A stretch of 64,000 nt of DNA from positions 928,001 through 992,000 of the forward strand of contig CBDHHL010000056.1 of the NCBI GenBank assembly GCA_965263355.1. Direction: 5' to 3'. The notes beneath the pieces are model-generated. The model did not search any database. It was not told the origin of the DNA and was given only the letters and a program-made list of their open reading frames with translations. This DNA comes from Leptolyngbyaceae cyanobacterium. GTDB taxonomy: Bacteria; Cyanobacteriota; Cyanobacteriia; Phormidesmidales; Phormidesmidaceae. Shown in pieces: positions 41,217-64,000 of the stretch. Both the position numbers and the translations under genes were made by a program. Numbering within the stretch: position 1 is the stretch's first letter; each line of letters begins with the position of its first letter.

Positions 41217-41218
41217 CC

Positions 41219-41824: not shown

Positions 41825-41878
41825 CTGAACACAGATACAGCTATCGAGTTGAGTTAACAAACCCATCAGGAGAGAATT

Positions 41879-43042: not shown

Positions 43043-43239
43043 TCAAAGGGGTAAACCATGTCACCCTGGTGGCCTCAGATTTGGAGACGTCTTTTAACTT
43101 TTACAAAGATATCCTTGGCTGTCAGCCACTAGCACGTTGGCAACGAGGGGCCTATTTTCTGGTAGGTGATTTGTGGTTGTGTCATCGCTATATGGGTGAT
43201 TGGCGGTCTCGTCTGGCGGCTGTGAGGGTGGACCCGTAG
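43039..43239 (+). pseudogene. Truncated FosA-like VOC/glyoxalase protein
   Basis: GVNHVTLVASDLETSFNFYKDILG...ARWQRGAYF..GDLWLC matches the FosA N-terminal half; similarity stops after WLC; ATGA-coupled to phnI. Confidence 0.7.
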
Positions 43240-43341
43240 ACGATATGGAATTTTTTATTTGATTTTGTGGATGGGGGATTGGCTATGTTGTGATGTTGCG
43301 GATGGTTGGGGTATGGGATGTGGGGGGCGGGATCCTGGATT

Positions 43342-43372
43342 GTTGGGTTTCGTTGCCTTCAACCCAACCTAC
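43342..43372 (-). repeat. GTAG-type REP palindrome
   Basis: Minus strand GTAGGTTGGGTTGAAGGCAACGAAACCCAAC. Confidence 0.65.
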
Positions 43373-43419
43373 GGTGTTTGTCTATTGTCTATCGTTTATT
43401 GTCGTCAACAACATCACGT

Positions 43420-44325
43420 ATGACCGCTTCTTTCCCTGCGTCTCCTCCCGCCTCCCCTGGTTCCCCCGAACCTGGCTTCAATTTTGCGTATCTGGATGAA
43501 CAGACTAAACGCTCTATTCGTCGTGCCCTACTTAAGGCTGTTGCTATCCCTGGGCATCAGATTCCGTTTAGCTCGCGGGAAATGCCGATGTCCTATGGTT
43601 GGGGGACTGGGGGCATTCAGGTGACAGCCTCGGTCATTGGTAAGGAAGATACCTTAAAGGTGATTGACCAGGGTGCCGATGATACGACCAATGCTGTGAA
43701 TATTCGGCGCTTTTTTAGGAAGGTATGTGGTGTAGCTACCACCGAGCGTACGGAAGAGGCTACATTAATTCAAACCCGTCATCGGATTCCTGAAATTCCC
43801 CTCAAAGAGGGACAGGTGTTTGTCTATCAGGTGCCTATGCCAGAGCCCCTGTATTTTATTGAGCCGTCTCAGACCGAGGCGAACAAGATGCATGCGTTGG
43901 AAGAATATGGGCCGATGTATGTGAAGCTTTATGAGGATATTACCAAATTTGGGCGGATTGCCCTGGCCTATGACTATCCGGTCATGGTGAATGAGCGCCA
44001 CTTGATGAATCCTAGCCCAATTCCCCGGTTTGATAATCCAAAAATGGATATGAATCCGGCGCTACAACTATTTGGGGCGGGAAGAGCAAAACGGATCTAT
44101 GCCATACCACCCTACACCAAGGTAAAAAGCCTGGACTTTGAGGATCATCCATTCTCTGTGGAGCACTGGGAACAGCCCTGTGAGTTTTGTGGGGCAACGG
44201 ATAGTTATTTAGATGAAGTTGTTATTGATGACCAGGGTGGTCGCATGTGGATTTGTTCGGATACGGACTATTGTGAACGACGTCAGCGGGAACAACGGGG
44301 CAGTGCACAAAAACTCGGGCAATAG
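43420..44325 (+). CDS. phnJ: Alpha-D-ribose 1-methylphosphonate 5-phosphate C-P lyase
   Basis: FNFAYLDEQTKRSIRR, YGWGTGG, CEFC...CSDTDYC; start set at ATG 43420 because the upstream extension runs through a REP. Confidence 0.95.
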   Translation: MTASFPASPPASPGSPEPGFNFAYLDEQTKRSIRRALLKAVAIPGHQIPFSSREMPMSYGWGTGGIQVTASVIGKEDTLKVIDQGADDTTNAVNIRRFFRKVCGVATTERTEEATLIQTRHRIPEIPLKEGQVFVYQVPMPEPLYFIEPSQTEANKMHALEEYGPMYVKLYEDITKFGRIALAYDYPVMVNERHLMNPSPIPRFDNPKMDMNPALQLFGAGRAKRIYAIPPYTKVKSLDFEDHPFSVEHWEQPCEFCGATDSYLDEVVIDDQGGRMWICSDTDYCERRQREQRGSAQKLGQ

Positions 44326-44337
44326 GAGGAATACACC

Positions 44338-45108
44338 ATGCAGCCACTATTAACGGTCAATAACTTAAGCAAGTATTATGGTGATTTGTGCGCGTGCGAT
44401 CGCATCTCCTTTACCCTTTACCCTGGGCAAGTTCTCGGCATCATCGGCGAGTCGGGTTCTGGCAAAAGTACCCTGCTCGATAGCATTGCCGGTCATGTAC
44501 CCTTGGAAGAGGGAGAGATCACCTATTGTAATCGAGACAACAACCTAATCAATCTACGCACCCTGCCTGAACCCCGACGACGTCAGCTCATGAAAACCGA
44601 ATGGGGATTTGTCCGGCAAAACCCACGGGATGGGCTACGGATGAGAGTCACCGCTGGAGCCAACATTGGTGAACGGCTCTTGGATATTGGTCAACGCCAC
44701 TATGGCAACATTCGCACCGACGCCCTCCAATGGCTTAGAGAAGTCGAAATTCCGGCTGACCGAATCGATAATTTTCCTAGCACTTTTTCCGGTGGCATGC
44801 AACAGCGGTTACAATTAGCCCGTATCCTCGTCACTCGCCCCCGCATTGTACTGATGGACGAGCCCACTGGCGGTCTAGATGTCTCGGTCCAGGCCAGACT
44901 GTTAGACCTGCTGCGTTCCCTGGTACGCACCCTCAACCTCAGCGTAATTTTGGTCACCCATGATATTGGAGTCGTACGGCTATTGGCCCATCGGCTAATG
45001 GTGATGCAAAACGGTCAGGTCGTGGAAACCGGCCTCACCGACCAAGTATTGGATGATCCCCATCATCCGTATACTCAACAGCTTGTAAATGCCACGTTAG
45101 TTCCTTAG
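44338..45108 (+). CDS. phnK: C-P lyase ABC-type ATPase PhnK
   Basis: EWGFVRQNPRDGL, HYGNIR, GLTDQVLDDPHHPYTQ. Confidence 0.95.
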   Translation: MQPLLTVNNLSKYYGDLCACDRISFTLYPGQVLGIIGESGSGKSTLLDSIAGHVPLEEGEITYCNRDNNLINLRTLPEPRRRQLMKTEWGFVRQNPRDGLRMRVTAGANIGERLLDIGQRHYGNIRTDALQWLREVEIPADRIDNFPSTFSGGMQQRLQLARILVTRPRIVLMDEPTGGLDVSVQARLLDLLRSLVRTLNLSVILVTHDIGVVRLLAHRLMVMQNGQVVETGLTDQVLDDPHHPYTQQLVNATLVP

Positions 45109-45128
45109 TTAAACAAGCAGATTACTCC

Positions 45129-45350
45129 ATGCTTAAGCAAGCCATTAACAAATTCTGTCCCCGCTCCGGTAAATATGTTCGAGACGATGCATTAACAACC
45201 TATAGAAGTCATACAGTCGGTTTTTGTAATCCCCAATGCTGTCAAGACTTTGCCGCGAATCCAGACGCCCATTCCAGCGATCGGGCCTATTTTGACACGT
45301 TGCTTAAGGAATATGAACTGGCAACAGAAGTAGATGAATCACACCAATGA
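45129..45350 (+). CDS. Small YHS/TRASH-like Cys protein
   Basis: AINKFCPRSGK...VGFCNPQC..DF; ATGA-coupled to phnL. Confidence 0.65.
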   Translation: MLKQAINKFCPRSGKYVRDDALTTYRSHTVGFCNPQCCQDFAANPDAHSSDRAYFDTLLKEYELATEVDESHQ

Positions 45351-46078
45351 ATACAGTACAACTCTCATCCCCACCCACAACTCCCAAAAACACTACTGCC
45401 TTACTCCAGGCAGAACAACTCTACAAAAGCTTTATTCTTCACCATCAGGGTGGTATCCAACTGCCCGTTCTCACAGGTGTTTCCCTCGCCGTTGCCCCTG
45501 GCGAATGCGTGGCTCTCCAGGGACCATCCGGTTCGGGTAAGTCTACCTTTATGCGGTCCCTATATGCCAACTATCGGGTCGATAGCGGCGCTATCTGGGT
45601 AAAGCACCAGGGTACATGGGTTGATCTACCCCAGCTGGAAGCCCACCAACTGATTGAGGTGCGCCAGTATACCCTGGGATATGTCAGTCAGTTTCTGCGG
45701 GTCATCCCTCGGGTACCAGCGGTAGAAGTAGCGGCAGAACCACTGATAGAACTAGGGACTGATGCAGACACCGCCCAGGCTAAAGTGTGTGGACTCTTCT
45801 CTCGGCTTAACCTGCCAGAGCGACTGTGGGAACTGTCACCGACCACCTTTTCTGGAGGAGAAAAGCAGCGAGTGAATATTGCCCGTGCGTTTGCCGTAGA
45901 CTATCCCATTTTGCTTTTAGATGAACCTACATCTGCCCTAGACGTTGCTAACCGCGAAGTCGTGATGCAGCTGATCGAAGAACGTAAGGCTCAAGGCTGT
46001 GCCATGGTTGGTATTTTCCATGATGACGAAGTGAGAGAACGGGTATGCGATCGCACCCTCAACTTTGGACAAGCCTAA
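45347..46078 (+). CDS. phnL: C-P lyase ABC-type ATPase PhnL
   Basis: KSFILHHQGG, YVSQFLRVIPRV, GIFHD. Confidence 0.95.
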   Translation: MNTVQLSSPPTTPKNTTALLQAEQLYKSFILHHQGGIQLPVLTGVSLAVAPGECVALQGPSGSGKSTFMRSLYANYRVDSGAIWVKHQGTWVDLPQLEAHQLIEVRQYTLGYVSQFLRVIPRVPAVEVAAEPLIELGTDADTAQAKVCGLFSRLNLPERLWELSPTTFSGGEKQRVNIARAFAVDYPILLLDEPTSALDVANREVVMQLIEERKAQGCAMVGIFHDDEVRERVCDRTLNFGQA

Positions 46079-46299
46079 GCGTCTTTCAAATTTTTAGCTT
46101 GTCTGAGCCGTTAAAATCGCTACCAAAATACTCATTAGCAGTTCTACATCTGCAGGTACCCGATATAGCTCCAGATCTTGAGATTTTTTTTACTTAAATC
46201 ACATCGCAAAGGACACCATAAGTTTTAACTTGGCCGTGGTTGAATCAGAAAAATAACAGGACTCCGGCAGTTCAATTGTTTGAGCCATTCTTTTATCTC

Positions 46300-46329
46300 C
46301 TAAACCTAACGATAACGTTAACTTAACCT
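46300..46329 (+). promoter_or_regulatory. Pho box (SphR/PhoB-type) upstream of phnM
   Basis: CTAAACCT-aac-GATAACGT-taa-CTTAACCT: three 8-mers at 11-bp period matching the cyanobacterial CTTAACCT consensus. Confidence 0.7.
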
Positions 46330-46349
46330 TGATTGGATATTAGTTAGGG

Positions 46350-46361
46350 ATGTCTAGACGT
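46350..46361. promoter_or_regulatory. Second GTCTAGAC operator candidate
   Basis: ATGTCTAGACGT about 60 bp upstream of phnM. Confidence 0.55.
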
Positions 46362-46421
46362 TTTTGCGATATCTAATCGGTAGAGAAGCCCGTTTTAGCC
46401 CCATAGCCTCCCCACACGCCC

Positions 46422-47558
46422 ATGACTGAAACCATCTACACCAATTATCGCTTGCAACTCCCTGACCAGGAAGTGCTAGGCACCCTAGTCGTTGAGGATG
46501 GCCTGATTGCCGATATTCAGCCAGAAACGGTCCACCAGGGGCAAAATGGCAACGGCGACTATCTGCTGCCAGGGCTGATTGAGCTACACACCGATAATCT
46601 AGAACGGTGTATGTCGCCTCGGCCAAAAGTAAACTGGCCTCTGGATGTGGCTGCCGTCAATCACGATCGAGATTTAGCGGGGGCTGGTATCACCACGGTT
46701 TGTGACGCCATTTCCATTGGCGATATTACCCCTGGTTCTCTGCGCATGACCCAGTTTGGGCCGATGATCGATACCATTTATAACGGCCAAAACCAGGGGC
46801 GGTTTGCGGTGGACCATCGCCTACACCTGCGTTGTGAGTTGGGCTACAACCAGGTGTATGACCTGGTAGAAACCTATGCTGACCATCCGCTGCTGTCGTT
46901 AATGTCCTTGATGGATCATACGCCAGGTCAACGACAGTTTGTAAAAATTGACAAGTATAAAGAATATTATCAGGGCAAACATGGCGTGAGTGCGGAGGAA
47001 ATGGAGGGCTTTATTCGCGATCGCATCGAAGCCCAGCAGCTCCATGCCGTGGACAATCGCCGTAGGCTAGTAGAATTAGCTCAGCAGCGCGATATTTGTT
47101 TGGCCAGCCATGACGATGCCACTCCAGAGCATGTCCAAGAGGCGGTGGCAGATGGTGCGGCCATTGCCGAATTTCCCACCACCCTGGATGCGGCCAAAGA
47201 AGCCCACAGTCATGGTTTACAGGTGCTGATGGGGGCCCCTAACTTAATCCTGGGGGGCTCCCATTCTGGCAATGTGTCAGCCATGGATTTAGTCGAGCGA
47301 GAGTTAGCCGATATTATCTCCTCAGACTATGTACCCCAAAGTTTAGTTCAAGCGATATTCCTTATTGCGGAGCAGGTCCAGCTACCGCTCCACAAAGCTA
47401 TGCGTTTGTTTACCTTAAATCCAGCTAAGGCGATTGGTTTAGATTGCGATCGCGGCAGTCTGGAAGTGGGTAAACGAGCTGACATGATTACCTTGCACCA
47501 CGACGGTGTAGTACCTCGGCTCACTTCTGTTGTTAGCCAGGGCAAACGCATTGCATAG
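46422..47558 (+). CDS. phnM: Alpha-D-ribose 1-methylphosphonate 5-triphosphate diphosphatase
   Basis: PGLIELHTDNLE, MDHTPGQRQF, ASHDD, GGSHSGN, SSDY. Confidence 0.95.
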   Translation: MTETIYTNYRLQLPDQEVLGTLVVEDGLIADIQPETVHQGQNGNGDYLLPGLIELHTDNLERCMSPRPKVNWPLDVAAVNHDRDLAGAGITTVCDAISIGDITPGSLRMTQFGPMIDTIYNGQNQGRFAVDHRLHLRCELGYNQVYDLVETYADHPLLSLMSLMDHTPGQRQFVKIDKYKEYYQGKHGVSAEEMEGFIRDRIEAQQLHAVDNRRRLVELAQQRDICLASHDDATPEHVQEAVADGAAIAEFPTTLDAAKEAHSHGLQVLMGAPNLILGGSHSGNVSAMDLVERELADIISSDYVPQSLVQAIFLIAEQVQLPLHKAMRLFTLNPAKAIGLDCDRGSLEVGKRADMITLHHDGVVPRLTSVVSQGKRIA

Positions 47559-47649
47559 GTGTAAGGGAATTAGGGGGGAGTGAGAGAAGTTCCTCACCGA
47601 AACTTATTTGCTTCTCTCCCCCCTTTTCTTCGTGGCCTCGTGTAATTAG

Positions 47650-48828
47650 ATGACCAACAACATCATGACGCCCATTTCTTCAACGAAGCTCGCGTTTCAC
47701 GGAGCCCAGGTGCTCACGCCAGATGGCTGGCTAGAGGACAGTACCGTTCTGGTCGAAGACGGTAAATTTATTGCAGTTGATCAAACTACTATCCCTGATG
47801 GTTATACCGAAGTAGATAGCTCTGATCTTCAGCTATTACCTGGTCTCATTGATATTCATGGAGATGCGTTTGAGCGCATGATTGCGCCACGACCCAGTAT
47901 ATCCATGCCCTTAGATATGGCCCTGGTCGAAAATGATCAGGCCTTACTCGCTGCGGGTATCACCACATTTTTCTATTCCATTACCGATTCGTTTGAGCCA
48001 GGGTTACGCAGTCGAGCCACAGCCCGACAACTAATTGAAAAGATTACGGCCCCTGACAATTATCTCCAAACAGATAGCCGCATTCATATCCGTCATGAAC
48101 AAGCCAATACCGCCGATTATGACGAGCTATGTCACTGGTTAGACTCGCGTCAGGTAACCTTACTATCCCTCAATAATCACTTACCTGACACCCTTGAAGA
48201 ATCCAAAATTCAACGTTATGCCAGCAGTGTACGCCAACGCATTAAACAGTCTGACCAGGACATTCGCACCCTGGTAGAAACAGCCTTTACTCAATTAGAC
48301 AAAGGCTTAACTCAAACAGAAGAGCTGGTAATGCGCTGCCATCAGCTCGGTATACCGGTTGCTTCCCATGATGATGAGACCGAGGCTGATGTTGCCAAGA
48401 GTCGAGAAAGGGGTGTTGCGATCGCAGAATTTCCCGCCGCTATTCCCCTGGCCAAACAATCCCGAGCCTATGGTGCTGCCGTCCTTATGGGAGCCCCTAA
48501 CCTGGTGCGAGGAGGGTCTCACGTCGGCTACATGGGTGTGGCCGAAGCTGCCCATGCCCAAGTGCTCGACTGCCTGTGTTCCGACTACCATTATCCGTCG
48601 TTATTCCATGCCCCTTTCTTGCTAGCCGAGAAAAATTTAATGTCCTTTGAACAAGCCTGGAAATGCGTTTCTCAATACCCAGCCGAAGCCGCCAAAATCG
48701 GAGACCAAAAAGGAAAAGTCGCACCCGGCCACGACGCCGATTTTCTCTTGTTAACCCCCGACTGTCCCTTACCCAGTGCCATCCGAGCTGTGTACATCAA
48801 CGGCAACCTCGTTAAGCAATCCAGATAA
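47650..48828 (+). CDS. phnM: Second, divergent PhnM-like amidohydrolase
   Basis: PGLIDIHGDAFER, ASHDD, AEFP, GAPNLVRGGSH, CSDY. Confidence 0.85.
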   Translation: MTNNIMTPISSTKLAFHGAQVLTPDGWLEDSTVLVEDGKFIAVDQTTIPDGYTEVDSSDLQLLPGLIDIHGDAFERMIAPRPSISMPLDMALVENDQALLAAGITTFFYSITDSFEPGLRSRATARQLIEKITAPDNYLQTDSRIHIRHEQANTADYDELCHWLDSRQVTLLSLNNHLPDTLEESKIQRYASSVRQRIKQSDQDIRTLVETAFTQLDKGLTQTEELVMRCHQLGIPVASHDDETEADVAKSRERGVAIAEFPAAIPLAKQSRAYGAAVLMGAPNLVRGGSHVGYMGVAEAAHAQVLDCLCSDYHYPSLFHAPFLLAEKNLMSFEQAWKCVSQYPAEAAKIGDQKGKVAPGHDADFLLLTPDCPLPSAIRAVYINGNLVKQSR

Positions 48829-48833
48829 TCTAT

Positions 48834-48861
48834 GTACAGACGTTCCATGGAACGTCTCCAC
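48834..48861. repeat. REP-like palindrome
   Basis: Perfect 20-bp palindrome AGACGTTCCATGGAACGTCT at 48838-48857. Confidence 0.65.
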
Positions 48862-48879
48862 ACCCTACTCCTAATTCCC

Positions 48880-49437
48880 ATGACTGTAACCCTAACTCAA
48901 ATTCTCGATCTCTACCGCCACCGGGGGCAGGCCCAATATGGTGGTGAAGCCGTTAGCCAACTGGAACACGCCCTCCAGTGCGCCACCCTGGCCGAAGACA
49001 ATGGCGAATCGCCGGAATTAATTGCCGCTTGTTTACTCCATGATTTAGGTCACTTAGTGCACCATCTCGGTGATGACCCTGCTATACGTGGCATCGATGA
49101 TCGCCATGAATATCGGGCCGTTCCTGTCTTAGAAACACTGTTTCCAGAAGCGGTTACCACCCCAATTCGTTTACATGTGGCCGCCAAGCGCTATCTTTGT
49201 GCAGTGGATAAAGACTACTGGAGTTCACTCTCGCCAGCCTCTAAGCTAAGCCTGGAACTCCAGGGAGGCATATTCTCAAAGCCGATGGCAGACAAATTTA
49301 TCGATCAGCCCAATGCGCCCCAGGCCGTTAAGCTGCGTCGTTGGGATGACCTGGCCAAGATCGAAAAGCTAAAAACGCCTGACTTAGATCATTTTCAACC
49401 CATTCTCAAAGTCGCTTGTCGGGTACCCGTAGCATGA
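48880..49437 (+). CDS. PhnZ-like HD-domain phosphonate-degradation protein
   Basis: YGGEAVSQLEHALQ, LLHDLGH, LHVAAKRYL, SLELQGG, LRRWDD; start set at ATG 48880. Confidence 0.85.
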   Translation: MTVTLTQILDLYRHRGQAQYGGEAVSQLEHALQCATLAEDNGESPELIAACLLHDLGHLVHHLGDDPAIRGIDDRHEYRAVPVLETLFPEAVTTPIRLHVAAKRYLCAVDKDYWSSLSPASKLSLELQGGIFSKPMADKFIDQPNAPQAVKLRRWDDLAKIEKLKTPDLDHFQPILKVACRVPVA

Positions 49438-50264
49438 CTTTTATCGCCCAAATTAGTGACCTGCATGTCCAATTGCCCGGCAAACTCGCCTATGGCATCG
49501 TAGACACTAACCCTTTAGTCGCTGAAGCCATCGCTAGACTGAGCAGACTCAACCCTCAGCCAGATGTAGTAGTCGCATCTGGCGATCTGATTCAAGACGG
49601 TACTGTGGAGGAATATGAACTGCTAAAAGTCATGCTCTCGCCGCTACAGTGCCCTGTTTATTTAATGCCTGGCAACCATGATGATCGGGATAATCTACGA
49701 CAGGTATTTGACACTCACACCTATCTCTTTAGGGAGCGTTCTCATATCAGTTACGTTGTAGACGGCTATCCCGTTCGTATGGTTATGCTCGATAGCATCA
49801 TTCCAGGACAAGGTGGGGGCCGTATTGATGCAGAGCGTTTGGCCTGGTTAGAACAACAACTTTTAGCAGCCCCCAAAACCCCCACACTGATATTTATTCA
49901 CCATCCGCCCTTTGCCACTGGTATACCCTGGATAGACCGCAAACGGTTTCACGGTCATGGGGCACTGGCGGAGTTAATTAGCCAACATCCCCAGGTAAAG
50001 CGTATTAGCTGTGGTCACTTGCACCGTACTATTTACTGTCCCTGGGCTGGTACGGTGGCCAGTAGTCAGCCTAGCTTGGTCCACCAGAGTGCCGTAGATT
50101 TTAACCCTGACAGTTCTAGCCAGTTTGTGATGGAGCCACCAGCCTACCAACTCCATGTGTGGACCCATGAAAATTTGGTCTCTCACACCATGTATGTTGG
50201 TCAGTTTGATGGCCCCTATCGTTTTTCCAATGGCAAACTGATTGCCACAGCTGCGTTAGGTTAG
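49434..50264 (+). CDS. Calcineurin-like metallophosphoesterase (CpdA/Icc type)
   Basis: SDLH, GDL, PGNHD, HHPP, GHLH; ATGA-coupled to the HD gene. Confidence 0.88.
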   Translation: MTFIAQISDLHVQLPGKLAYGIVDTNPLVAEAIARLSRLNPQPDVVVASGDLIQDGTVEEYELLKVMLSPLQCPVYLMPGNHDDRDNLRQVFDTHTYLFRERSHISYVVDGYPVRMVMLDSIIPGQGGGRIDAERLAWLEQQLLAAPKTPTLIFIHHPPFATGIPWIDRKRFHGHGALAELISQHPQVKRISCGHLHRTIYCPWAGTVASSQPSLVHQSAVDFNPDSSSQFVMEPPAYQLHVWTHENLVSHTMYVGQFDGPYRFSNGKLIATAALG

Positions 50265-54551: not shown

Positions 54552-56729
54552 ATGTATAGCATTACCTTAAAGCCAGTCTATTCATGTCCTGCTCAACAAC
54601 TGCCTGATGGAGTTATTTTGCCTGATGGCTGGGAGTCTTTGGCTTGGCATCAGGTCGAGACCTTTAAAGCACTCAACGATCCTGATGTCGATGTTGTTTT
54701 TAACACAGCAATGACCGGAGATGGTAAGAGTTTAGCTGCCTATCTCAAGGTATTTCAGGAGTATTACTGTGCTCTAGGTCTTTATCCCACCAATGAGTTA
54801 GCCAGAGATCAAGAAAATCAACTGCTGGAGAATATCCAAAAATTTAAGCCATCCCATAGGCCAAGAGTAAATCGTCTGAGTAGTGCTGAGTTAGAGATTT
54901 ATGCAGAAACTGAAGGGTTGACTAAAGCTGGGTCCATAGGAACACTAACAAACCAATCCGAAGTCATCGTCACTAACCCTGATATCCTGCACTACATTTA
55001 CCGGGGTGCCTATGTAATGAAACAGGACACGCCAGATAAGCTATGGAATCGGATTGACCGAAATTTTGACTTATTTATCTTTGATGAGTTTCATATTTTT
55101 GCGGCACCCCAAGTGGCCAGTGTTATCAACACGCTGTTGTTAATTCGATTGACCAATCGGCCTAAAAAGTTTTTATTCTTGTCTGCGACGCCTGATGAAC
55201 AACTTGTGGGACGCCTGAGAACTGCTGGGTTTCGTTGTCAGGTGATTGATCCACAGAAAGAGAACAAATATAATTTTCCAGATAGTGCTGAACAAGCTAT
55301 TGAGTTAAATGGTAAACACTGGCGGCAAATTGCCAGGGCTATAGATCTAAACTTTGTAGCAGTTGAATCGACGTCTAAAGCATCGGAAACCTGGATCAAA
55401 GAGAATTCAGAACAAATTCTGCAGCATTTTCAACAAGGTCCTGGCACTAAGGGGGCAATCATTCTGAACTCTATTGCTTCAGTTAAGCGGCTGGTACCTT
55501 TTCTACAAAACTTGTTTCAGCCCCATGGATTGACTGTTGGTGAAAATACAGGACTTTCAGGTAAAGAAAAACGAGCGCAATCTTTAGAGGCTGATTTGGT
55601 TATTGGTACCAGCACCATTGATGTGGGTGTGGACTTTAAGATTAACTTTTTAATTTTTGAATCAGCCGATGCTGGTAATTTTATTCAGCGATTGGGGCGA
55701 TTGGGCAGACATGATGGCTATGTGAAAGCAGGCAAGGAAATTGCATTCAATGGGTTTACCGCCTATGCCCTGATTCCTCAGTTCTTTGCAGAACGGCTAT
55801 TTACAAAAGGAGACCAGCCACCACTTAAAACGGGTAAGAGTTATGATCGTCAGTCTTTGCACAACATCATCAGAGACAATTATCGAAATATCAACGACTT
55901 TCAGGGTTATTATTCTCGCTGGGGTGCTTATCAGTCCCTGGCATTGGGTAAGAAGTTGGCCGACAAGAAAATTCAAGAACAGTATGCAGGTAGTTTAGCG
56001 GTCTTTCAAGCAACCTGTGAAAAGGTTTTTAATCGTCGCTTTAAGGAATTGTCCGGTCGGGCTAGCAGTTGGCGCAAAGACTGGCAGGCATTATCCGGGA
56101 AGAAAGATGGAAGTAACCCTATTTTTGAAGATGCCTGTAGTTTTCGAGGGGCTAGTCCGCTGCAGTGTGGACTATATGATCTGACTGAAGAAAACCCAGT
56201 GGATCGGTATAAGACCTATTCACTACCGGGCATCCTCAGCAATTTAGAGGTAGAGGTATGGACAAAAGCTGCATTTTTGAGATCCCTCAAAGAAACGGTT
56301 AAAGCGACTGGACAGTCGATACCCAAAGGCAGATTTGAACATTGCCTGATTTTTCTAAAGCTCCGTGCCTACCGTGAAGAACGATTGGATTGGAAGTTTA
56401 CGTATCCAGGTGAACTGACTAAGCAGACTAATCAGGTACAGGTACTGACAGGACTTGAAATCTGGCAACCTGATAACCCATGGGCCAGCAGTGTTAATAA
56501 AAAGCTACGGAATCAAGGAATAGTCTGCTATGGCCTTCATAAACCTGTTCAGGAAGTACGGCATAAGCTGCGACTACCAATGCATTTTCAGCTTTATTCC
56601 ATCAGCGATCACTATAGTTATCACGATCCTAAAGCACCGTATTCAATAGCCTTTGGGCAAAGCGCTTTGATGCTGGATACACTGACTGGCTGGCTCAAGC
56701 ACAAGAGCAGTGAACCACTTATTTTTTAG
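54552..56729 (+). CDS. cas3: Type I-D Cas3' helicase
   Basis: TAMTGDGKS, YPTNEL, DEFH, SAT, TSTIDVGVDF, QRLGRLGRH; no HD domain. Confidence 0.93.
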   Translation: MYSITLKPVYSCPAQQLPDGVILPDGWESLAWHQVETFKALNDPDVDVVFNTAMTGDGKSLAAYLKVFQEYYCALGLYPTNELARDQENQLLENIQKFKPSHRPRVNRLSSAELEIYAETEGLTKAGSIGTLTNQSEVIVTNPDILHYIYRGAYVMKQDTPDKLWNRIDRNFDLFIFDEFHIFAAPQVASVINTLLLIRLTNRPKKFLFLSATPDEQLVGRLRTAGFRCQVIDPQKENKYNFPDSAEQAIELNGKHWRQIARAIDLNFVAVESTSKASETWIKENSEQILQHFQQGPGTKGAIILNSIASVKRLVPFLQNLFQPHGLTVGENTGLSGKEKRAQSLEADLVIGTSTIDVGVDFKINFLIFESADAGNFIQRLGRLGRHDGYVKAGKEIAFNGFTAYALIPQFFAERLFTKGDQPPLKTGKSYDRQSLHNIIRDNYRNINDFQGYYSRWGAYQSLALGKKLADKKIQEQYAGSLAVFQATCEKVFNRRFKELSGRASSWRKDWQALSGKKDGSNPIFEDACSFRGASPLQCGLYDLTEENPVDRYKTYSLPGILSNLEVEVWTKAAFLRSLKETVKATGQSIPKGRFEHCLIFLKLRAYREERLDWKFTYPGELTKQTNQVQVLTGLEIWQPDNPWASSVNKKLRNQGIVCYGLHKPVQEVRHKLRLPMHFQLYSISDHYSYHDPKAPYSIAFGQSALMLDTLTGWLKHKSSEPLIF

Positions 56730-56841
56730 TTTCAGTCCCGGTTTTCGGGATTAGGGATGTCGATAGAAATGAAACAGCTTTCGCCATTAAGTACAGACAG
56801 ACGTGTTTCAGTCCCGATTGTCGGGATTTATATTAACTTCG
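56729..56841 (-). CRISPR. Degenerate mini-CRISPR array: two repeats of about 37 nt and one spacer of about 39 nt
   Basis: Repeats GTTTCAGTCCCGGTTTTCGGGATTAG... (56729) and GTTTCAGTCCCGATTGTCGGGATTTA... (56805). The reverse complement ends in CCCG-loop-CGGGACTGAAAC, like the cyanobacterial I-D repeat as I recall it. Spacer on the minus strand: ACGTCTGTCTGTACTTAATGGCGAAAGCTGTTTCATTTC. Confidence 0.88.
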
Positions 56842-56912
56842 ACAAATTGACCTATCGAACTCTATCAACCAATTTCAATCATATATGGTTTAAGCAATCA
56901 AAGATTGAAAAG

Positions 56913-56933
56913 GTAACGTCAGTCTTAACTTAA
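56913..56933 (+). promoter_or_regulatory. Self-target site A of the mini-array spacer, with GTA PAM
   Basis: GTA|ACGTCAGTCTTAACTTAA versus spacer ACGTCTGTCTGTACTTAA: 15/18, mismatches at positions 6, 11 and 12. Confidence 0.7.
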
Positions 56934-57032
56934 CATATTTAGAAAAAGGTATTGCTATCGGCTATCGATTAAGTTAGCTTCAGATTGTCAGAGGAAGTAA
57001 TTCATTCGTATTAGTTAACTAGGAGTATATCA

Positions 57033-57233
57033 ATGCGACGAATCAAGACGAAAGGAAAAATTGATCTCTTATTAAAGGTACTTTCCGATCACGAATGGCA
57101 TTGGGGAGAAGAGCTTGCTACTAAAGTAGGATGGCGATTTGGTGCAACAGTTAAAACAGCAAGAGACAAAGGATATCAAATTGAAAGTGAGCGTGTTGGT
57201 CTTCAGTGGAGGTATCGACTATTGAGAGATTAG
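57033..57233 (+). CDS. 66-aa winged-HTH protein (BirA N-terminal/HTH_11-like)
   Basis: AGGAG RBS; LLKVLSDHEWHWGEELATKVG...GYQIES...YRL. Confidence 0.75.
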   Translation: MRRIKTKGKIDLLLKVLSDHEWHWGEELATKVGWRFGATVKTARDKGYQIESERVGLQWRYRLLRD

Positions 57234-57294
57234 CTAAAACTTAGATTAAAGTAGCTCTTCGCGAATAACTGTTCCATAAGTTGAAGAGCTCCAC

Positions 57295-57431
57295 AAGGAA
57301 GCCTGATTAATAGCTTTCGGCGTTAAGAACAGGCAGACGTAGTCTAAACCCCCTCGCTTTTTGATAGCAGGCTGGTTAAGTCTTAAGAGCTGATGAACTG
57401 ACTCGAATTTGCAAAGTTCTCAGGCTTCCTT
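57295..57431 (+). ncRNA. Candidate structured RNA/leader element closed by a 12-bp inverted repeat
   Basis: AAGGAAGCCTGA (57295-57306) pairs with TCAGGCTTCCTT (57420-57431); internal stems AGCTT/GAGCT, TTAAGA/TCTTAA, AGAC/GTCT, GAACT/AGTTC. Strand is inferred. Confidence 0.45.
57312..57340 (-). other. Self-target site B of the mini-array spacer (25/29, no GTN PAM)
   Basis: Plus strand AGCTTTCGGCGTTAAGAACAGGCAGACGT versus spacer AGCTTTCGCCATTAAGTACAGACAGACGT (56776-56804); the PAM position reads ACT. Confidence 0.85.
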
Positions 57432-57468
57432 TCTTATAGTTTCAGTCGATGAGTACCTCAAGTGAAAC

Positions 57469-57911
57469 ATGTTTATTCAAAGCCTTGAGAATCTGTATTC
57501 CAAAGTGCCAAAGATTTTAGAGCAAGTTCCCTATCTCAAGCTATTAATACTTTTTGGGTCTAGGGCAAAAGGTGACAATACATCCAACAGTGATTGGGAT
57601 TTTGCTTTTCTATGTGATGAAAATGAGCGTTCTCATTATGAACAAGGTGGTTGGGATAACTTCAGGATCAGTAGCTTGTTAGGACAGGTACTTGAACTTC
57701 CTAGTCATGCTATAGACATCGTGGATCTTAACGAGTGTCCTGAACTTTTAGCCCATCAAATAGCTCAGGACGGAAGGTCATCTACGAAAAAGAACCCAGC
57801 GAGTTTGAACGGTTTCGACAAAGCCATCTAAAGAGTCCAGAGCAAATACAGCAAATAGGACAAGACTTAAGTTCAAGCATTCAAGAGCGTCTACGACAGT
57901 GGAGTGCATGA
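57469..57911 (+). pseudogene. MNT (MntA-like) antitoxin with an apparent 1-nt deletion near 57774
   Basis: LFGSRAKGD..NSDWDFA and IDIVDL motifs. Annotated frame ends at 57831; the shifted frame reads (G)KVIYEKEPSEFERF...WSA to TGA 57911, overlapping the HEPN ATG. Confidence 0.75.
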
Positions 57912-58348
57912 CAATGAATTTTAACTCTGTTCGTTTCAGACTTAACTTGATTCTGGATTATCTAGAAGAGCTGAGACCGCTTGGAACAGTGACGTTTGAT
58001 GAATTAACTGATGATCGATACAAATATCGTTCTGCTGAACGATTGTTGGAAATCATTATCCAGGCTGCCATTGATATCAACAACCATCTGATATCAGGAC
58101 TGAGCAAACGACGACAGGCATCAAATACCGACAATTTTCTGGAAATGGCTAAATTAAATATCCTGACTCCAGAAATAGCGCAAGATTTATCGGCCTCCAG
58201 CAATTTTCGAAATCGTTTGGCCCATGAATATTACAGCATTGATCCATCCATTGTTTTTCAGTCCATTACTAAAGCTTTAGAACAATATCCACAGTACGTG
58301 CAACAAGTGCTTGAATTTGTAGACAACTTTGAGATGAATGATGAGTAA
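57908..58348 (+). CDS. HEPN (DUF86/HepT-like) RNase toxin
   Basis: SAERLLEIIIQAAIDI and intact RNRLAHEY (Rx4HxY) motif; overlaps the cas10d start. Confidence 0.88.
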   Translation: MTMNFNSVRFRLNLILDYLEELRPLGTVTFDELTDDRYKYRSAERLLEIIIQAAIDINNHLISGLSKRRQASNTDNFLEMAKLNILTPEIAQDLSASSNFRNRLAHEYYSIDPSIVFQSITKALEQYPQYVQQVLEFVDNFEMNDE

Positions 58349-61300
58349 TAATCTCAACGACGATAATCTTGATTGGTTAGATGACGATATTGGGGATGAA
58401 CAGTCGTCTAACCGAACGATTGAACCCACTCAGCGTGAGCTTCTGACCTTAAAGCTTTTACGCTCCGCGATTCACACACAGAATCCTGATGATGCCGTAA
58501 TGCAGGATTTTGCTGAGTATGTATTACCTAACTTGTTGAAAATTACCATTGGCGTTACGGCTAAGGGAGGTAAGTTTTTTGACAAGTTAGATCAAGAAAA
58601 GGGGAAAGAAAACGTTCGGCGTGATAATGCAGCGGATCAGTCTCTGAATACTCACTTGCTTAATGGTTTATTTCCAGCAAATCTAATCGAACAACGGCTT
58701 GAACAACTGGATACAACGATTCAACGATTAGTGCGAGAGCAAGAGCGTCGTTTGGTCATGGCGGCTTTTATTCTGCATGATTTTGAGAAATTTCCTGATG
58801 TTGATGGTGAGATTAGAAGCTTGCCTGGTGAAGAACGTCTAAAACAACATCGTCAGGTTATCGACAAAAAAATACAACAGCTTGGGCTAGATCACTTTAT
58901 TAATCCCCAAAATCCAACGGCATACCGAGAGTATCTGGATGATCTGTTATGTATGGCTTACAACGCCCAAAGACGTTGGGATACGAATTGGAATTTTTCA
59001 GAATATGGGTTGCAGCCAGTCTTAAAAGACAAAATTTTGCGAAATTTGACTGAGTTAACCTGTTTAGCTGATTCCTTGGCATCCATCATCAAACATCCCC
59101 AAGATGCCACCAGTTATAAGTTCAAAGAACTACTCCATAGCTTGAGTGACGGACAAATCAGCCTTACCTATCATAGCATTTCAGAAAACAGGGGGGTGTT
59201 GACCAACGTAGTCAATAATGCCGTTATGGATGCCCATATTGCGCTCAATACCCCAGATAAAAAGCATTATGAACCGCTACTCTATCTACCAACTGGGGTT
59301 ATTTATCTGGCCTATGGGAAACCACCTCCGGTGGCACTTAATGATTTGCCTGAGCGGGTGATCGCCAAAATCAAACAACTCTGTTTTGAACAGCTAAGAC
59401 GTCGCCAAACTGGTTTTAGTCGGGATGGTAAAGGCATGAAATATGCCGACTACTACACGCTTTTCTGTGACACTCGGCAGTTAATGTACATCGCCTTAGA
59501 TGCCACCCTCAGAATCTTATCTAACAATAAAAAGTCTGTTGGTCCTAGCCGCAGTGCAAAACTCAAAACGTTTCAAGAAAAAGGTGCTCTTTCAGCGGAT
59601 TATGATTTTCAACTGGGGGATGATATTCGGATTGATCAGCTAGCTGAGTTCGGCGATGTGATTTGCCGTAAAGTGTGGGGTGAGCGATGCGATCTCATCC
59701 AAACCCTATACAAAGAAAGAACCAAAAAACGGAAGAAAAACAAAGACTTATCAGAACTTCCGGAGTTAAAGCTATTGCCTGAACAACTGGTTATCAAGCT
59801 GGCTGAGTTTTTAGGTCTATCAGAGTATCTACCGCAACTCCGAGAAATCCAGACTATTAACGCTACTCTAAAAGAGAAAAAAGTCAAAGGCAGTACCGGT
59901 GGCATTCCCTACGAATGGTATTTTATCTCCACTAAACTAATTCAGGGTTCAGGTATCGAAAATATTCGAGAGATTGCCGAGAAAATTATTGACCATGCTG
60001 CAAACTTAATTGAGCCTGTTATCGCCCAATATGAAGTTGCTGATGGCTGGGATGACTTAAGATCTTGGGTAAATCAAGTGGTGATGCTGCCACAGGCCAC
60101 CATAACTAAAACACCCAAAGATCAGACCGATATCTTTCTAAAGGAATTGGCCAGCTATCAGGTGGCCAAAAAAGTTGGACGTGGCAAACTAGCGATTTGC
60201 TCAGTCTCCCATTCTGCCTACTCTGTAAAAGAGCAAATGGAATCAGAGGTATTATTTACTCCCCAGGTGTATACCAATAAACAGCTACTGGGTGGTTCTA
60301 ACGCGAAACGCAATATTTCCAGCATTGCAGGGTTAGAAATGATGCTACGTCAGATTCTAATGAACCAAACTCAAGCAGTGGGCAAACGGTTTGAAGATGG
60401 CAAATATCGTTATCTCTACTTTTACCCTACCTACTACTTCACCCCGGAAACCAGTCGTTTCTTACAAAAAGCTTATACAGGCATTGCCCAAACTCGATTT
60501 AGTACCAATCTACGCAATCACTTTATCTCTAAGGATTTGGTCGTTGATTTTAGTCGTGAGCACTATCAGGCGGTTGATTCATTCTTGATCGATGATGATT
60601 TAGAGCGCAAGACAACCTTACCTGAAGATGATCCAGACTATAAACGCGATCGCACCTTTAAACTCTCTTACCCAGACGATCAGCCATTAACCTTTTTCTT
60701 TATGGCATTGCCACCGGGACGAGACCCCACCGATACCGAATCTTGGGTAATGCCAGCCTGGTTAGCCTTTGCTAGTCCAATGATTCTGGATGTCAAAACC
60801 GTGGTCTCAGAATCTCCTGTCCCCCCATTTAATGATGGTGCGGAGTTTGAAGAAAGTGTCTTTTTGGATAGTGCCCCCCAAGCCTTTAGAGCCCTACTCA
60901 AACAGGATAGGTTCCGGTTAGATTACATCCTTGAAGGTTGGCAAACCCCAGACGGCACCCAGCAAGCTTCTCCCCTTAATGCCTTAACCAGTGCCTATGC
61001 AATTCACCTGGATGTGAATGCCAAACAAGGTAAGGGAGGATATGACGCTAACTGGGGCAAGTTGACAGAGCTAGCCAAAGATTTAGAAACCAGTCCGCTC
61101 TATGTATTCAATTACTTAAATCGTTGGCTTCGTAATCAGAAAAAAGAATCTATACGTATAGAAAAGATCAAACTCTATGCCTACCACTTTTATCCCTGTT
61201 TTGACCCGCATACAAAATTAATCGTACTTGACTTGGAGGAAATGCTTGTGTGTGACGAGAAATCTGCGCTGAGACATCCGCAAAGACTGACCGAATTGTA

Positions 61301-61757
61301 CAGACGGTTTTATCGTGCCGATAAACGATATAACCCCAAAAGCAATGCCGTTTTGAAACCGATCAAGGAAGCCGCTGATGTTATTTTGAATGCGGATACT
61401 GATGGGTTTAGGGGAGAAGACTTAGTCTTTTTAGTTGCTGCTAAGAATACAAAGTTAATGGATCGAATTCATTCGTCAGGTGCGGAAGGCTATCCTGTCT
61501 TTAAACGAAATGAGCGCGACCAAGAACGAGAATCTATCCTAGAATTTGCTCGATATTTTGTCCATGAGGTATTTGAAAAATCCTTTGCTAGTGATCGTGG
61601 TCGGTTAGCAGGCAGACAACTCAATCTTCTGCGTGATGCGTGTGAATTCATCTATCGTCTTGAACAAGACAAAGAAAATAAAAAAGATAAAGATAAAGCA
61701 GACAGTAAGCAAATCAAGAACGACGTTAACTCATCGAACGATAATGGCGAGGATTAA
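58338..61757 (+). CDS. cas10d: Type I-D large subunit Cas10d (Csc3) with N-terminal HD domain
   Basis: DQSLNTHLLNG, LHDFEK HD motif, RGVLTN, YTNKQ, DTESW. Confidence 0.92.
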   Translation: MMSNNLNDDNLDWLDDDIGDEQSSNRTIEPTQRELLTLKLLRSAIHTQNPDDAVMQDFAEYVLPNLLKITIGVTAKGGKFFDKLDQEKGKENVRRDNAADQSLNTHLLNGLFPANLIEQRLEQLDTTIQRLVREQERRLVMAAFILHDFEKFPDVDGEIRSLPGEERLKQHRQVIDKKIQQLGLDHFINPQNPTAYREYLDDLLCMAYNAQRRWDTNWNFSEYGLQPVLKDKILRNLTELTCLADSLASIIKHPQDATSYKFKELLHSLSDGQISLTYHSISENRGVLTNVVNNAVMDAHIALNTPDKKHYEPLLYLPTGVIYLAYGKPPPVALNDLPERVIAKIKQLCFEQLRRRQTGFSRDGKGMKYADYYTLFCDTRQLMYIALDATLRILSNNKKSVGPSRSAKLKTFQEKGALSADYDFQLGDDIRIDQLAEFGDVICRKVWGERCDLIQTLYKERTKKRKKNKDLSELPELKLLPEQLVIKLAEFLGLSEYLPQLREIQTINATLKEKKVKGSTGGIPYEWYFISTKLIQGSGIENIREIAEKIIDHAANLIEPVIAQYEVADGWDDLRSWVNQVVMLPQATITKTPKDQTDIFLKELASYQVAKKVGRGKLAICSVSHSAYSVKEQMESEVLFTPQVYTNKQLLGGSNAKRNISSIAGLEMMLRQILMNQTQAVGKRFEDGKYRYLYFYPTYYFTPETSRFLQKAYTGIAQTRFSTNLRNHFISKDLVVDFSREHYQAVDSFLIDDDLERKTTLPEDDPDYKRDRTFKLSYPDDQPLTFFFMALPPGRDPTDTESWVMPAWLAFASPMILDVKTVVSESPVPPFNDGAEFEESVFLDSAPQAFRALLKQDRFRLDYILEGWQTPDGTQQASPLNALTSAYAIHLDVNAKQGKGGYDANWGKLTELAKDLETSPLYVFNYLNRWLRNQKKESIRIEKIKLYAYHFYPCFDPHTKLIVLDLEEMLVCDEKSALRHPQRLTELYRRFYRADKRYNPKSNAVLKPIKEAADVILNADTDGFRGEDLVFLVAAKNTKLMDRIHSSGAEGYPVFKRNERDQERESILEFARYFVHEVFEKSFASDRGRLAGRQLNLLRDACEFIYRLEQDKENKKDKDKADSKQIKNDVNSSNDNGED
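61248..61757 (+). CDS. cas11d: Probable internally translated small subunit Cas11d
   Basis: GGAGG at 61235-61239, then in-frame ATG 61242 and GTG 61248, before LTELYRRFYRA. Confidence 0.6.
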   Translation: MCDEKSALRHPQRLTELYRRFYRADKRYNPKSNAVLKPIKEAADVILNADTDGFRGEDLVFLVAAKNTKLMDRIHSSGAEGYPVFKRNERDQERESILEFARYFVHEVFEKSFASDRGRLAGRQLNLLRDACEFIYRLEQDKENKKDKDKADSKQIKNDVNSSNDNGED

Positions 61758-62369: not shown

Positions 62370-62415
62370 CTGTGTTTTGAATGTCCAGCAAACTATTAAA
62401 CCAGGAAAATTAATT

Positions 62416-63426
62416 ATGACTTTGCTCAAAACCCTCGATTCTAAGTTTTTCCATAACGAAATTCCCTATAAACCCATGGGAAAATATGCACATTTTCTGA
62501 CTGTTCGTATCACCGAGTCTTATCCTCTATTTCAAACAGATGGAGAACTCAATAAAGCAAGGGTTCGAGCTGGAATCGTAAATGCTCAACCTGTCAGGCG
62601 ATTAAGCATGTTTAAGCGTAAACAATCAACGCCAGAACGTTTGGTAGGCAGAGAACTTTTACGTAACTATGGCTTTATGACTGCAGAAGACTGTGAGTAT
62701 AACGTCAAATTTGCCATGGATAATCCAGACTGTATTATCTATGGATTTGCCATTGGTGACTCTGGTTCAGAAAAGTCAAAGGTGGTTGTAGATACTGCTT
62801 TTTCTATTACACCCTTTGATAAATCCCATGAAACTTTTACCCTAAATGCACCATTTGAGAATGGAACAATGGCCTCTAAAGGAGAAGGTGGAGGAAAGTT
62901 AGGAGAAATTACAAATCGCATCAATCAGCAAGACCATATTCGCCCCCAGGTTTTTTTCCCAAGCATTGTCACCCTCAAAGATCCAACGGAAGCAGGCTTT
63001 TTGTATGTGTTCAACAATATCTTACGTACTCGTCATTATGGAGCTCAGACGACACGTACAGGACGGGTACGGAATGAGTTAATTGGTGTTGTTTTTGCTG
63101 ATGGTGAAATTGTTAGCAACCTGCGCTGGACTCAAGCTATCTACGATTTAATGAAAGATGGTGGCCATTTAGATATTCCAGACCCTTTAAATGAGGATGA
63201 TGTTGTACAAGCCGCTAAAGATGCGATCGCAAATCTCATGTCAGATGAATTTATTGTCCATACAGACTTTATCGGGGATGATTTTCAATCTGTACTGGAT
63301 GAAGTTAAGTCTTTAACCGGTACTGAAAAAGGTATCAAGTCAATTTTAGAAGCCGCTGATGCCGAAGCTAAAACCTATGCCTCTAAGCACATCAGTAGCA
63401 AGAAAAAAGCTGCCGCCAAGAAATAA
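62416..63426 (+). CDS. cas7d: Type I-D Cas7 (Csc2)
   Basis: FKRKQSTPERLVGRELLR, CEYN..PDCIIYGFAIG, YGAQTTRTG; start set at ATG 62416. Confidence 0.93.
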   Translation: MTLLKTLDSKFFHNEIPYKPMGKYAHFLTVRITESYPLFQTDGELNKARVRAGIVNAQPVRRLSMFKRKQSTPERLVGRELLRNYGFMTAEDCEYNVKFAMDNPDCIIYGFAIGDSGSEKSKVVVDTAFSITPFDKSHETFTLNAPFENGTMASKGEGGGKLGEITNRINQQDHIRPQVFFPSIVTLKDPTEAGFLYVFNNILRTRHYGAQTTRTGRVRNELIGVVFADGEIVSNLRWTQAIYDLMKDGGHLDIPDPLNEDDVVQAAKDAIANLMSDEFIVHTDFIGDDFQSVLDEVKSLTGTEKGIKSILEAADAEAKTYASKHISSKKKAAAKK

Positions 63427-63428
63427 TC

Positions 63429-64000
63429 ATGCCAATTATCTATCGTTGCACCCTAGAACTGCACGATAGCTTGTACTTTGCCACCCGTGAGATTGGACGG
63501 CTTTATGAAACCGAACCGATTTTGCATAATTATGCTCTTTCCTACGTTTTAGGGCTGGTGGACAACGAACAATTAGCCACTACTGTTGCTGAAGAGTACA
63601 GCTATCGTAACTTTTGTGCAGAACAAATTCCTCGATATCAGGAACAACTCACTCCCCTTACGCAGCAAGGTATCTATGTCACCCCAGCCAGGTCGCTCAC
63701 CCATACCAGTGTGCTTAATACCTGGAAGTATGCCGACAACCGCTACCACGTAGAAATGCAGGCCACTGAAAAGAACATTCCCAGTTTTGGGCGTACCAAA
63801 GAGATTGCGATTGAGAGCCAGTTTGAGTTTTTTGTGTTCTCAGAACAGACTTTGAAACTACCCCGATGGGTGCGTATCGGTAAGTGGGCCAGCAAAGCTG
63901 AGCTAACAGCTTTTGAACTCCCTAAACCACAACTCAATAAGGCGAATAAGGAGTTTACCTATGCCTATCCACTCAATCCGTTGGATGTGATGTTTACTAA
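63429..64000 (+). CDS. cas5d: Type I-D Cas5 (Csc1), truncated by the window end
   Basis: MPIIYRCTLELHDSLYFATREIGRLYETEPILHNYAL...LPRWVRIGKW; not in the ORF track. Confidence 0.9.
   Translation, partial: MPIIYRCTLELHDSLYFATREIGRLYETEPILHNYALSYVLGLVDNEQLATTVAEEYSYRNFCAEQIPRYQEQLTPLTQQGIYVTPARSLTHTSVLNTWKYADNRYHVEMQATEKNIPSFGRTKEIAIESQFEFFVFSEQTLKLPRWVRIGKWASKAELTAFELPKPQLNKANKEFTYAYPLNPLDVMFT

Follow-up and report, generated by a model that had tools for sequence, protein, structure and literature searches.

A PAM-less guide-complementary site in a conserved structured RNA at cyanobacterial type I-D CRISPR loci: a candidate target mimic for Cascade

Mini-arrays of type I-D with promoter targets and toxin-antitoxin (TA) cargo are described in the available text of PMC10120712, and I-D mini-arrays are also mentioned in that of 10.1101/2023.03.10.532045. 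As far as the available sections of these two reports on CreR/crlRNA autoregulation go, the locus described here shares with them a degenerate two-repeat mini-array that lies opposite to cas3, between cas3 and cas10d, a partial PAM-plus-seed match at the promoter of the cargo or effector genes, and TA cargo. The same sections give PAM-flanked promoter DNA targets only, whereas the present locus carries an extra, longer and PAM-less match in a conserved structured RNA, which we call site B. The CreTA/CrePA systems (PMC10097628; 10.1101/2024.01.05.574328; 10.64898/2026.06.02.729485), in the parts of these sources consulted, have in common with it a guide-repressed promoter and a small RNA or ORF in the gap between cas3 and the effector genes, but the site-B RNA has no conserved mini-ORF. 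In addition, transcript binding by the I-F complex is not expected according to the consulted part of PMC10097628; at the present locus, by contrast, the pairing pattern implicates the transcript. Cas complexes are also sequestered or redirected by the small RNA anti-CRISPRs Racr and Cracr (PMC10651486; 10.1101/2024.10.29.618823); according to the portions seen, these are phage-encoded repeat mimics loaded as guides, whereas the site-B RNA is host-encoded and resembles the target of a loaded guide.

The biochemistry needed for a guide to act on RNA is found in PMC9123187, the accessible part of which reports PAM-independent, sequence-specific RNA binding by I-D Cascade in vitro with synthetic RNA only; ssRNA was bound at 11 nM with either flank versus 35 nM for PAM-bearing dsDNA. 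This agrees with the first-pass annotation, which had noted that I-D Cascade is reported to bind single-stranded nucleic acid without a PAM. According to the review PMC10212523, in vivo I-D interference has been tested on dsDNA only. Our literature search, which reached few subscription journals, found no mini-array guide with a second, PAM-less target complementary to the transcript; these sites may be marked in Supplementary file 6 of PMC10120712. The mini-array guide belongs to the CreR/CreA type already described, and its RNA target is the undescribed addition.

Organization of the I-D locus and its mini-array guide

The window is the whole 64-kb stretch of DNA that was analysed. The gene order in its I-D locus is cas3', mini-array, site A, likely promoter, 66-aa ORF, hairpin P0, site-B RNA, MntA, HepT, cas10d, an unassigned ORF, cas7d and cas5d. 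The features are the following:

54552..56729, plus strand: cas3' of type I-D (TIGR03158 cas3_cyano, E 7e-113)
56729..56775, minus strand: distal degenerate repeat of the mini-array plus linker (weak DR52 match at 56759-56729; direct repeat D2)
56776..56804, minus strand: mini-array spacer, guide positions 1-29, between two repeats and conserved in family-1 homologues
56805..56832, minus strand: leader-proximal repeat, source of the 8-nt 5' handle (weak DR52 match)
56913..56933, plus strand: site A, GTA PAM plus seed match (positions 1-5, 7-10, 13-18), predicted DNA target just upstream of the promoter
56952..56980, plus strand: likely sigma-70 promoter TTGCTA-17-TAGCTT, inferred (7/12 consensus bases; missed by the strict scan)
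57033..57233, plus strand: 66-aa helix-turn-helix-like (HTH) protein, upstream of the site-B RNA in family-1 loci
57253..57290, plus strand: hairpin P0, directly before the site-B RNA (predicted fold; single-sequence folds of homologues)
57312-57340, plus strand: site B, complementary to the guide as RNA (25/29 plus 2 wobbles), without PAM
57469..57831, plus strand: MntA antitoxin, cargo (NF047752; frame shift near 57773)
57899..58348, plus strand: HepT RNase toxin, cargo, of a bacterial type VII TA pair (NF047751)
58338..61757, plus strand: cas10d (TIGR03174, E 4.7e-280)
62377..63426, plus strand: cas7d (csc2; TIGR03157)
63429..63998, plus strand: cas5d (csc1; TIGR03159), continuing beyond the window edge

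Two features of a CreR/CreA-type mini-array were found, namely two degenerate repeats around one spacer beside cas genes and a PAM-flanked seed match at a promoter. Both repeats resembled Rfam CRISPR-DR52 on the minus strand with sub-threshold scores of 23 and 21.6 bits (gathering score 50), so the guide is read from the minus strand and would pair with the plus-strand transcript at site B. Site A was the sole GTN-plus-seed site for this guide in the 64-kb window. In seven of the eight family-1 relatives checked (see below), the sequence in the same place has 8-10 of 12 consensus bases. The promoter stretch 56952-56969 contains a tandem GCTATCG repeat that is also present in family-1 relatives and may be an operator for the small HTH or for the WYL protein. 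At 11 of 33 loci with site B (e.g. L106 and L085; L numbers denote surveyed loci), a second, inverted GTN-plus-seed site was observed on the minus strand just upstream of site A, which may let the guide repress its own promoter; this inverted site is absent from the window.

Searches of Pfam and NCBIfam with the 66-aa ORF gave no match, and its Atlas neighbours (score 0.95) carried HTH_39 in 22-37% of members. Hairpin P0 recurs among homologues with varying sequence. The frame shift in MntA removes the usual C-terminus; other contigs from two public runs have one extra base there, so the shift could reflect either strain variation or an error in assembly. Contigs of these runs (X1 and X2, from one sample that is possibly the window's own) matched the window over 56600-57734 with zero differences. 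Elsewhere in the window, we observed five tandem 333-nt repeats at 22810-24441, four of them at 97-100% identity, and the translations at 40764-50264 look like what we take to be a phosphonate C-P lyase (phn) operon.

The first-pass annotation had described site B as a 25/29 match in which guide U8 and U19 would form G-U wobbles with the plus-strand transcript, with ACT at the PAM position and a flank unlike the 5' handle, and we obtained the same result at each point. On the plus strand, site B (57312-57340) repeats the spacer (56776-56804) in the same orientation with 25 of 29 identical positions, or 27 of 32 with a distal extension, as the pairing runs past the spacer end to about guide position 32. 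The differences lie at guide positions 8, 13, 19 and 21, of which 8 and 19 are U-G wobbles against the plus-strand RNA; the PAM position reads ACT, and two of the eight flanking bases agree with the handle. The next best guide matches in the 64 kb were 19/29 on the plus strand and 18/29 on the minus strand, while the chance expectation for matches of at least 25/29 in the window was about 6e-6.

Covariation of guide and site B across homologues

A protein search of 401 cyanobacterial genomes yielded 72 I-D cas3' ends in 71 genomes. The scan covered all 72 ends and reached as far as 1450 nt downstream, except on five short contigs, where it ended earlier. A mini-array repeat was detected by pattern at 47 of the 72 loci and not at the other 25, among which L087 is a miss. 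Site B was called as a same-sense second match of 17-21/22 whose score exceeded those of all 30 spacer shuffles and that of the opposite strand. By this measure, 27 of the 47 sampled loci with a repeat have a site B; the first scan gave no clear site B in the remaining 20, so the site is dispensable. A gapped re-scan of these 20 recovered the shifted site of L083 and gave low p-values for L082 and L112, with opposite-strand scores of similar size. Five loci from other searches enlarged the set. Because the first score skipped every sixth position, the choice of site B was redone by plain identity, and the same site was picked in 33 of 33 loci. Among named records, Picosynechococcus sp. PCC 7117 and Anabaena sp. 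90 have a site B at 22/29 each, the former on plasmid NZ_CP016482.1 (252700-257000) and the latter on pANA02; these two and Leptolyngbyaceae UHCC 1019 are cultured strains with such loci. The survey confirmed that site B is a real, conserved feature that is not limited to this locus.

The guides form at least three divergent families that are probably related to one another. In family 1, which includes the window, site B is located 430-540 nt from the repeat, after the HTH gene, whereas in families 2 and 3 it is located 140-170 nt from the repeat, directly after a -10-like box. The first-pass annotation had proposed that the guide pairs without a PAM with the leader RNA of the operon. The homologues strongly support the plus-strand pairing, but the term leader is wrong here, as site B in the window sits between the 66-aa ORF and the TA genes and is a leader RNA only in the two related families. 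Site A was found in 30 of the 33 loci with site B. We also found loci that have lost parts of the module: L002 keeps a family-1 spacer in the absence of the RNA, L015 has lost the RNA and its spacer has diverged in the distal half, and at L018:1335-1427 (G053) the RNA is truncated after site B by other sequence and the spacer is 1 nt shorter, possibly a sign of decay. Several further loci (L097, L100, L111, L123, L082, L142 and others) carry single-repeat units after cas3' with a PAM-plus-seed promoter target and no site B.

The RNAs of the other families are followed by different small ORFs. A conserved ORF of 61-64 aa comes after the family-2 RNA (L115:860-1045, L117:842-1030, L084:2257-2442 and four more loci), and it contains two QLxLF-like motifs, presumably the sliding-clamp binding motif; the ORF is a candidate protein toxin or clamp competitor. 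Similar motifs were observed at the N-terminus of several Cas10d proteins (L129, L143 and L091). The family-3 and L098 RNAs are followed by a conserved ORF of about 80 aa that belongs to no known family (L114:924-1160, L091:833-1081 and L098:2702-2935). The small ORFs of families 2 and 3 gave no Pfam family above cut-off and no useful Atlas match.

Near copy L036 (of L034) was left out, L018 (1-nt shifted spacer, truncated RNA) was left out of the family-1 pairing test, L098 (a match that contains an indel) was left out of both the 32-locus pairing count and the cas3-tree test, and L156 (indel) and L162 (no spacer) were left out of the latter. In 32 loci, 650 of 704 positions of the cognate guide-site B pairs were paired, as against a mean of 532 and a maximum of 592 for shuffled partners; family 1 alone showed 392 of 418 versus 388.2 (p 0.004). 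By these counts, each site B tracks its own guide although the guides differ widely. On a low-resolution cas3 tree of 35 loci, joint changes of guide and site B numbered 103 of 121 possible, while column permutation gave a mean of 54 and a maximum of 78; at the sixth positions, they numbered 24 of 50. Guide families were scattered on this tree, and the site-B module seems to move between loci as a cassette. All of the pairing and joint-change counts are inflated by the relatedness of the loci and by this exchange. Such guide-RNA co-evolution in many cyanobacteria suggests that a DNA-targeting CRISPR complex is naturally regulated via an RNA target.

The mismatches were distributed in a characteristic register. 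At guide positions 6, 12, 18 and 24, 77 of 128 cells (60%) were unpaired in the 32 loci, compared with 54 of 704 cells (8%) at the other positions between 4 and 29, and 17 of those 54 fell at position 21. At position 21 (57320 in the window), a G-G mismatch is kept in 15 of 19 family-1 loci, and few have a match. Position 30 was mostly unmatched, and positions 31-33 were paired again. At site A, positions 6 and 12 matched in only 9 and 4 of 30 loci, with neighbouring positions matching far more often. Since the same register is free at site A, the pairing of guide and site B probably takes place inside Cascade. Guide positions 19-29 matched site A at background level and site B nearly fully; retention of this part of the guide is therefore explained by site B. 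The divergence of L015 agrees with this, whereas L002 has kept this half in spite of lacking the RNA.

A GTN PAM was present at site B in 0 of 32 loci, and guide positions 2 and 3 were matched in only 9 and 8 of 32, respectively, so that site B looks like an RNA target and lacks the cognate PAM and matched seed of CreR/CreA-type targets. Flank positions -3/-4 read T-C in 27 of 32 sites. The net energy of the guide-site B hybrid was below -10 kcal/mol in 30 of 33 loci. As for the earlier argument that the mismatches favour RNA:RNA pairing, the wobbles are present in the window, but across loci we counted 25 wobble-type versus 15 reverse-type changes, a modest excess; taken alone this argument is weak, and the six-base periodicity, the absent PAM and the broken seed outweigh it.

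The structured RNA around site B

Site B is contained in a previously unannotated, predicted RNA with the following elements:

57295..57431, plus strand: structured RNA of about 140 nt that holds site B, closed by helix P1 (inverted repeat I6)
57295-57306 with 57420-57431, plus strand: helix P1, predicted, closing the site-B RNA
57344..57380, plus strand: inner helix P3, located PAM-side of site B, whose apical insert varies

In 17 family-1 loci, P1 was 95.9% paired, and four of its ten pairs showed two-sided changes; its cells included 15 G-U versus 4 A-C pairs, favouring the plus strand. The inner helix was 85% paired, and its pairs 57-110 and 58-109 were invariant. The arms between P1 and P3 measured 39-42 and 39-46 nt in all 17 family-1 RNAs, with an apical insert of 7-29 nt, and the 3' arm was A-rich. 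A closing helix was also found in most loci of families 2 and 3. Folding of the whole RNA revealed no strand preference: the plus strand was more stable in 12 of 33 loci, and z was below -2 in 13 versus 8. An Rfam covariance search over the site-B RNA returned no family (best E 8.8), whereas a covariance model of the family-1 RNA matched 10 of 90 genomes, all at I-D loci and once per genome besides the spacer itself.

Several simpler descriptions of this RNA were considered and rejected. A rod-like hairpin derived from an inverted duplication did not fit, as complementarity of the 3' arm to site B did not exceed that of shuffles in 31 of 33 loci and was significant (p<0.05) in only 2 of 33; for the same reason, the likeness of this RNA to an R-loop is one of geometry only. 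An intrinsic terminator or attenuator is unlikely since at least five T in the 8 nt after P1 occurred in only 6 of 17 loci, and a terminator scan found none. A solitary repeat unit of the Racr kind was set aside because no repeat-like Cas6 hairpin and handle were found, with no DR52 match at site B. The first-pass annotation had noted a weak resemblance of the flank to the repeat start; this resemblance was present in family 1 with a 1-nt offset and absent from families 2 and 3. The repeat-like 30-mer at 57439-57468 has no repeat counterpart in homologues; in L067, the beginning of the following gene looks similar to it. The site-B pattern also matched viral sequence at five loci, all without mini-array context, and these matches were read as chance. 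Finally, a third genomic copy that could be a shared target was not found among the extra pattern matches inspected (L042 and L056), which lacked the module; in that check, 11 of 22 new loci had no nearby cas3 or cas10d.

Possible function of the site-B RNA and alternative explanations

The covariation makes it likely that Cascade binds the site-B RNA at all, while the consequence of this binding is the most uncertain step of the mechanism. Our best model, which we put forward tentatively, is that the Cascade acting as repressor is titrated by a target mimic within the operon transcript. One guide processed from the mini-array would have two targets, DNA at site A in the promoter and RNA at site B. 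Guide-loaded I-D Cascade would bind the PAM-bearing partial match at site A and repress the operon of HTH, TA, cas10d, cas7 and cas5 genes, a step that we infer from the layout. The same Cascade would pair guide positions 4-33, every sixth excepted, with site B in the helix-closed RNA made from that promoter, and the absent PAM and broken seed would protect the DNA copy of site B from cutting. The two helices would hold open a bubble of about 40 by 42 nt, shaped like an R-loop substrate, so that the RNA would act as a target mimic. Upon promoter leak or a shortage of Cascade (by an anti-CRISPR or competing crRNAs), new transcript would pull the repressing complex off the promoter, and this positive feedback would switch on Cascade and cargo genes in a sharp burst, to be reset as new Cascade accumulates. 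Titration would follow if the RNA accumulates, because the long RNA match should outcompete the 10-16 nt promoter match. In 6S RNA and small-RNA sponges, helices around a bubble mimic a DNA substrate and titrate the binder; the partner there is different, and the likeness is by analogy only.

The main rival, which is a realistic possibility though a doubtful one, is a second lock in cis, where Cascade would bind, or Cas7d would slice, the nascent transcript at site B and lower expression of the downstream small ORF, TA genes and cas10d, in addition to the repression at the promoter. L091 and L114 have a site B without a convincing promoter site A, so in these two loci there would be no repression for a decoy to relieve. 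In family 2, site B overlaps the P1 5' strand at the apparent transcript start and the conserved 61-64 aa ORF comes next; blocking site B in silico made the ribosome site harder to open in three of seven family-2 loci, although it became easier in one of seven. Also in favour of the lock, archaeal Cas7d cuts ssDNA in 6-nt steps (PMC10212523). In family 1, however, blocking site B left the next ribosome site unchanged in 23 of 23 loci. With the P1 5' strand blocked too, the site became harder to open in 14 of 23 and easier in none, but this outcome is close to built in, since the freed pyrimidine-rich strand can only add competition. The scarcity of U-tracts after P1 (6/17) speaks against termination, and the gene after the RNA varies in family 1. 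A translational switch in cis is thus not needed in family 1, where the ribosome site is unchanged and the cargo genes vary. The closed ends, the constant bubble, the variable cargo and the unchanged ribosome access (0/23) fit the decoy, that is, the titration model.

The remaining explanations are much weaker. It is improbable that the RNA is a CreT-like toxin, both repressed and neutralised by guide binding. It does occupy the place of creT under a repressed promoter, the P1 5' strand is Shine-Dalgarno-like, and model matches were restricted to I-D loci; nevertheless, the sequence that is best conserved is the one that varies along with the guide. In addition, the first two loci showed a mini-ORF across site B, which was rejected since neither start codon nor mini-ORF is conserved in 20 family-1 loci, and CreT needs one according to the available part of PMC10097628. 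We regard as quite improbable that site B is a PAM-less DNA target, such as transient ssDNA or a weak roadblock. The six-base periodicity cannot separate an RNA from a DNA target and fits both equally, I-D Cascade binds ssDNA (PMC10212523), and guide positions 1-7 are all matched in the window, which is unusual among the sampled sites. Against it stand the missing GTN, the mostly mismatched positions 2 and 3, and the RNA-type helix with G-U pairs that surrounds site B.

Pairing without Cascade, as naked antisense, or in the other direction, with a minus-strand copy of site B as a second guide against read-through across the mini-array, is very improbable. The repeat-like flank of family 1 and the small wobble bias (25 vs 15) would be compatible with it, but a naked duplex would not spare positions 6, 12, 18, 24 and 30, and the repeat hairpins, handle and PAM target belong to the spacer only, with a flank that is not repeat-like in families 2 and 3. 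Least probable, and already largely refuted, is a neutral relic of a mini-array duplication whose copies gene conversion keeps alike: the spacer recurs at site B as a direct repeat, both share the same new seed in the window, and L162 looks like a deletion between both, but gene conversion would not skip every sixth base, and site B persists, always within a conserved fold, although the guides differ from one another at most positions. The homologues accordingly do not show the decayed array duplication that the first-pass annotation had named as its refuting case. Origin of site B by duplication of the spacer plus repeat start is plausible. At L162 (plasmid of Stanieria cyanosphaera PCC 7437, 2986-3165), site B lies directly behind the first repeat and the spacer-side linker, and the locus lacks the second repeat, the promoter and the HTH gene, which looks like a deletion from spacer to site B; recombination of the two copies with each other seems to have collapsed this locus.

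The binding of RNA by I-D Cascade is tight in vitro (PMC9123187). The loci described here point to a particular RNA as its natural partner, and their evolution displays the pairing register that would be expected. We consider it likely that host-encoded structured RNAs are natural targets of type I Cascade that co-evolve with the guide and serve as an R-loop-like decoy or an RNA-level lock, through which autorepression senses its own transcript. If this is true, regulatory CRISPR guides would act on RNA besides promoters and CRISPR autoregulation would gain a feedback element, and I-D Cascade would be a candidate for a programmable RNA binder or an RNA-input sensor.
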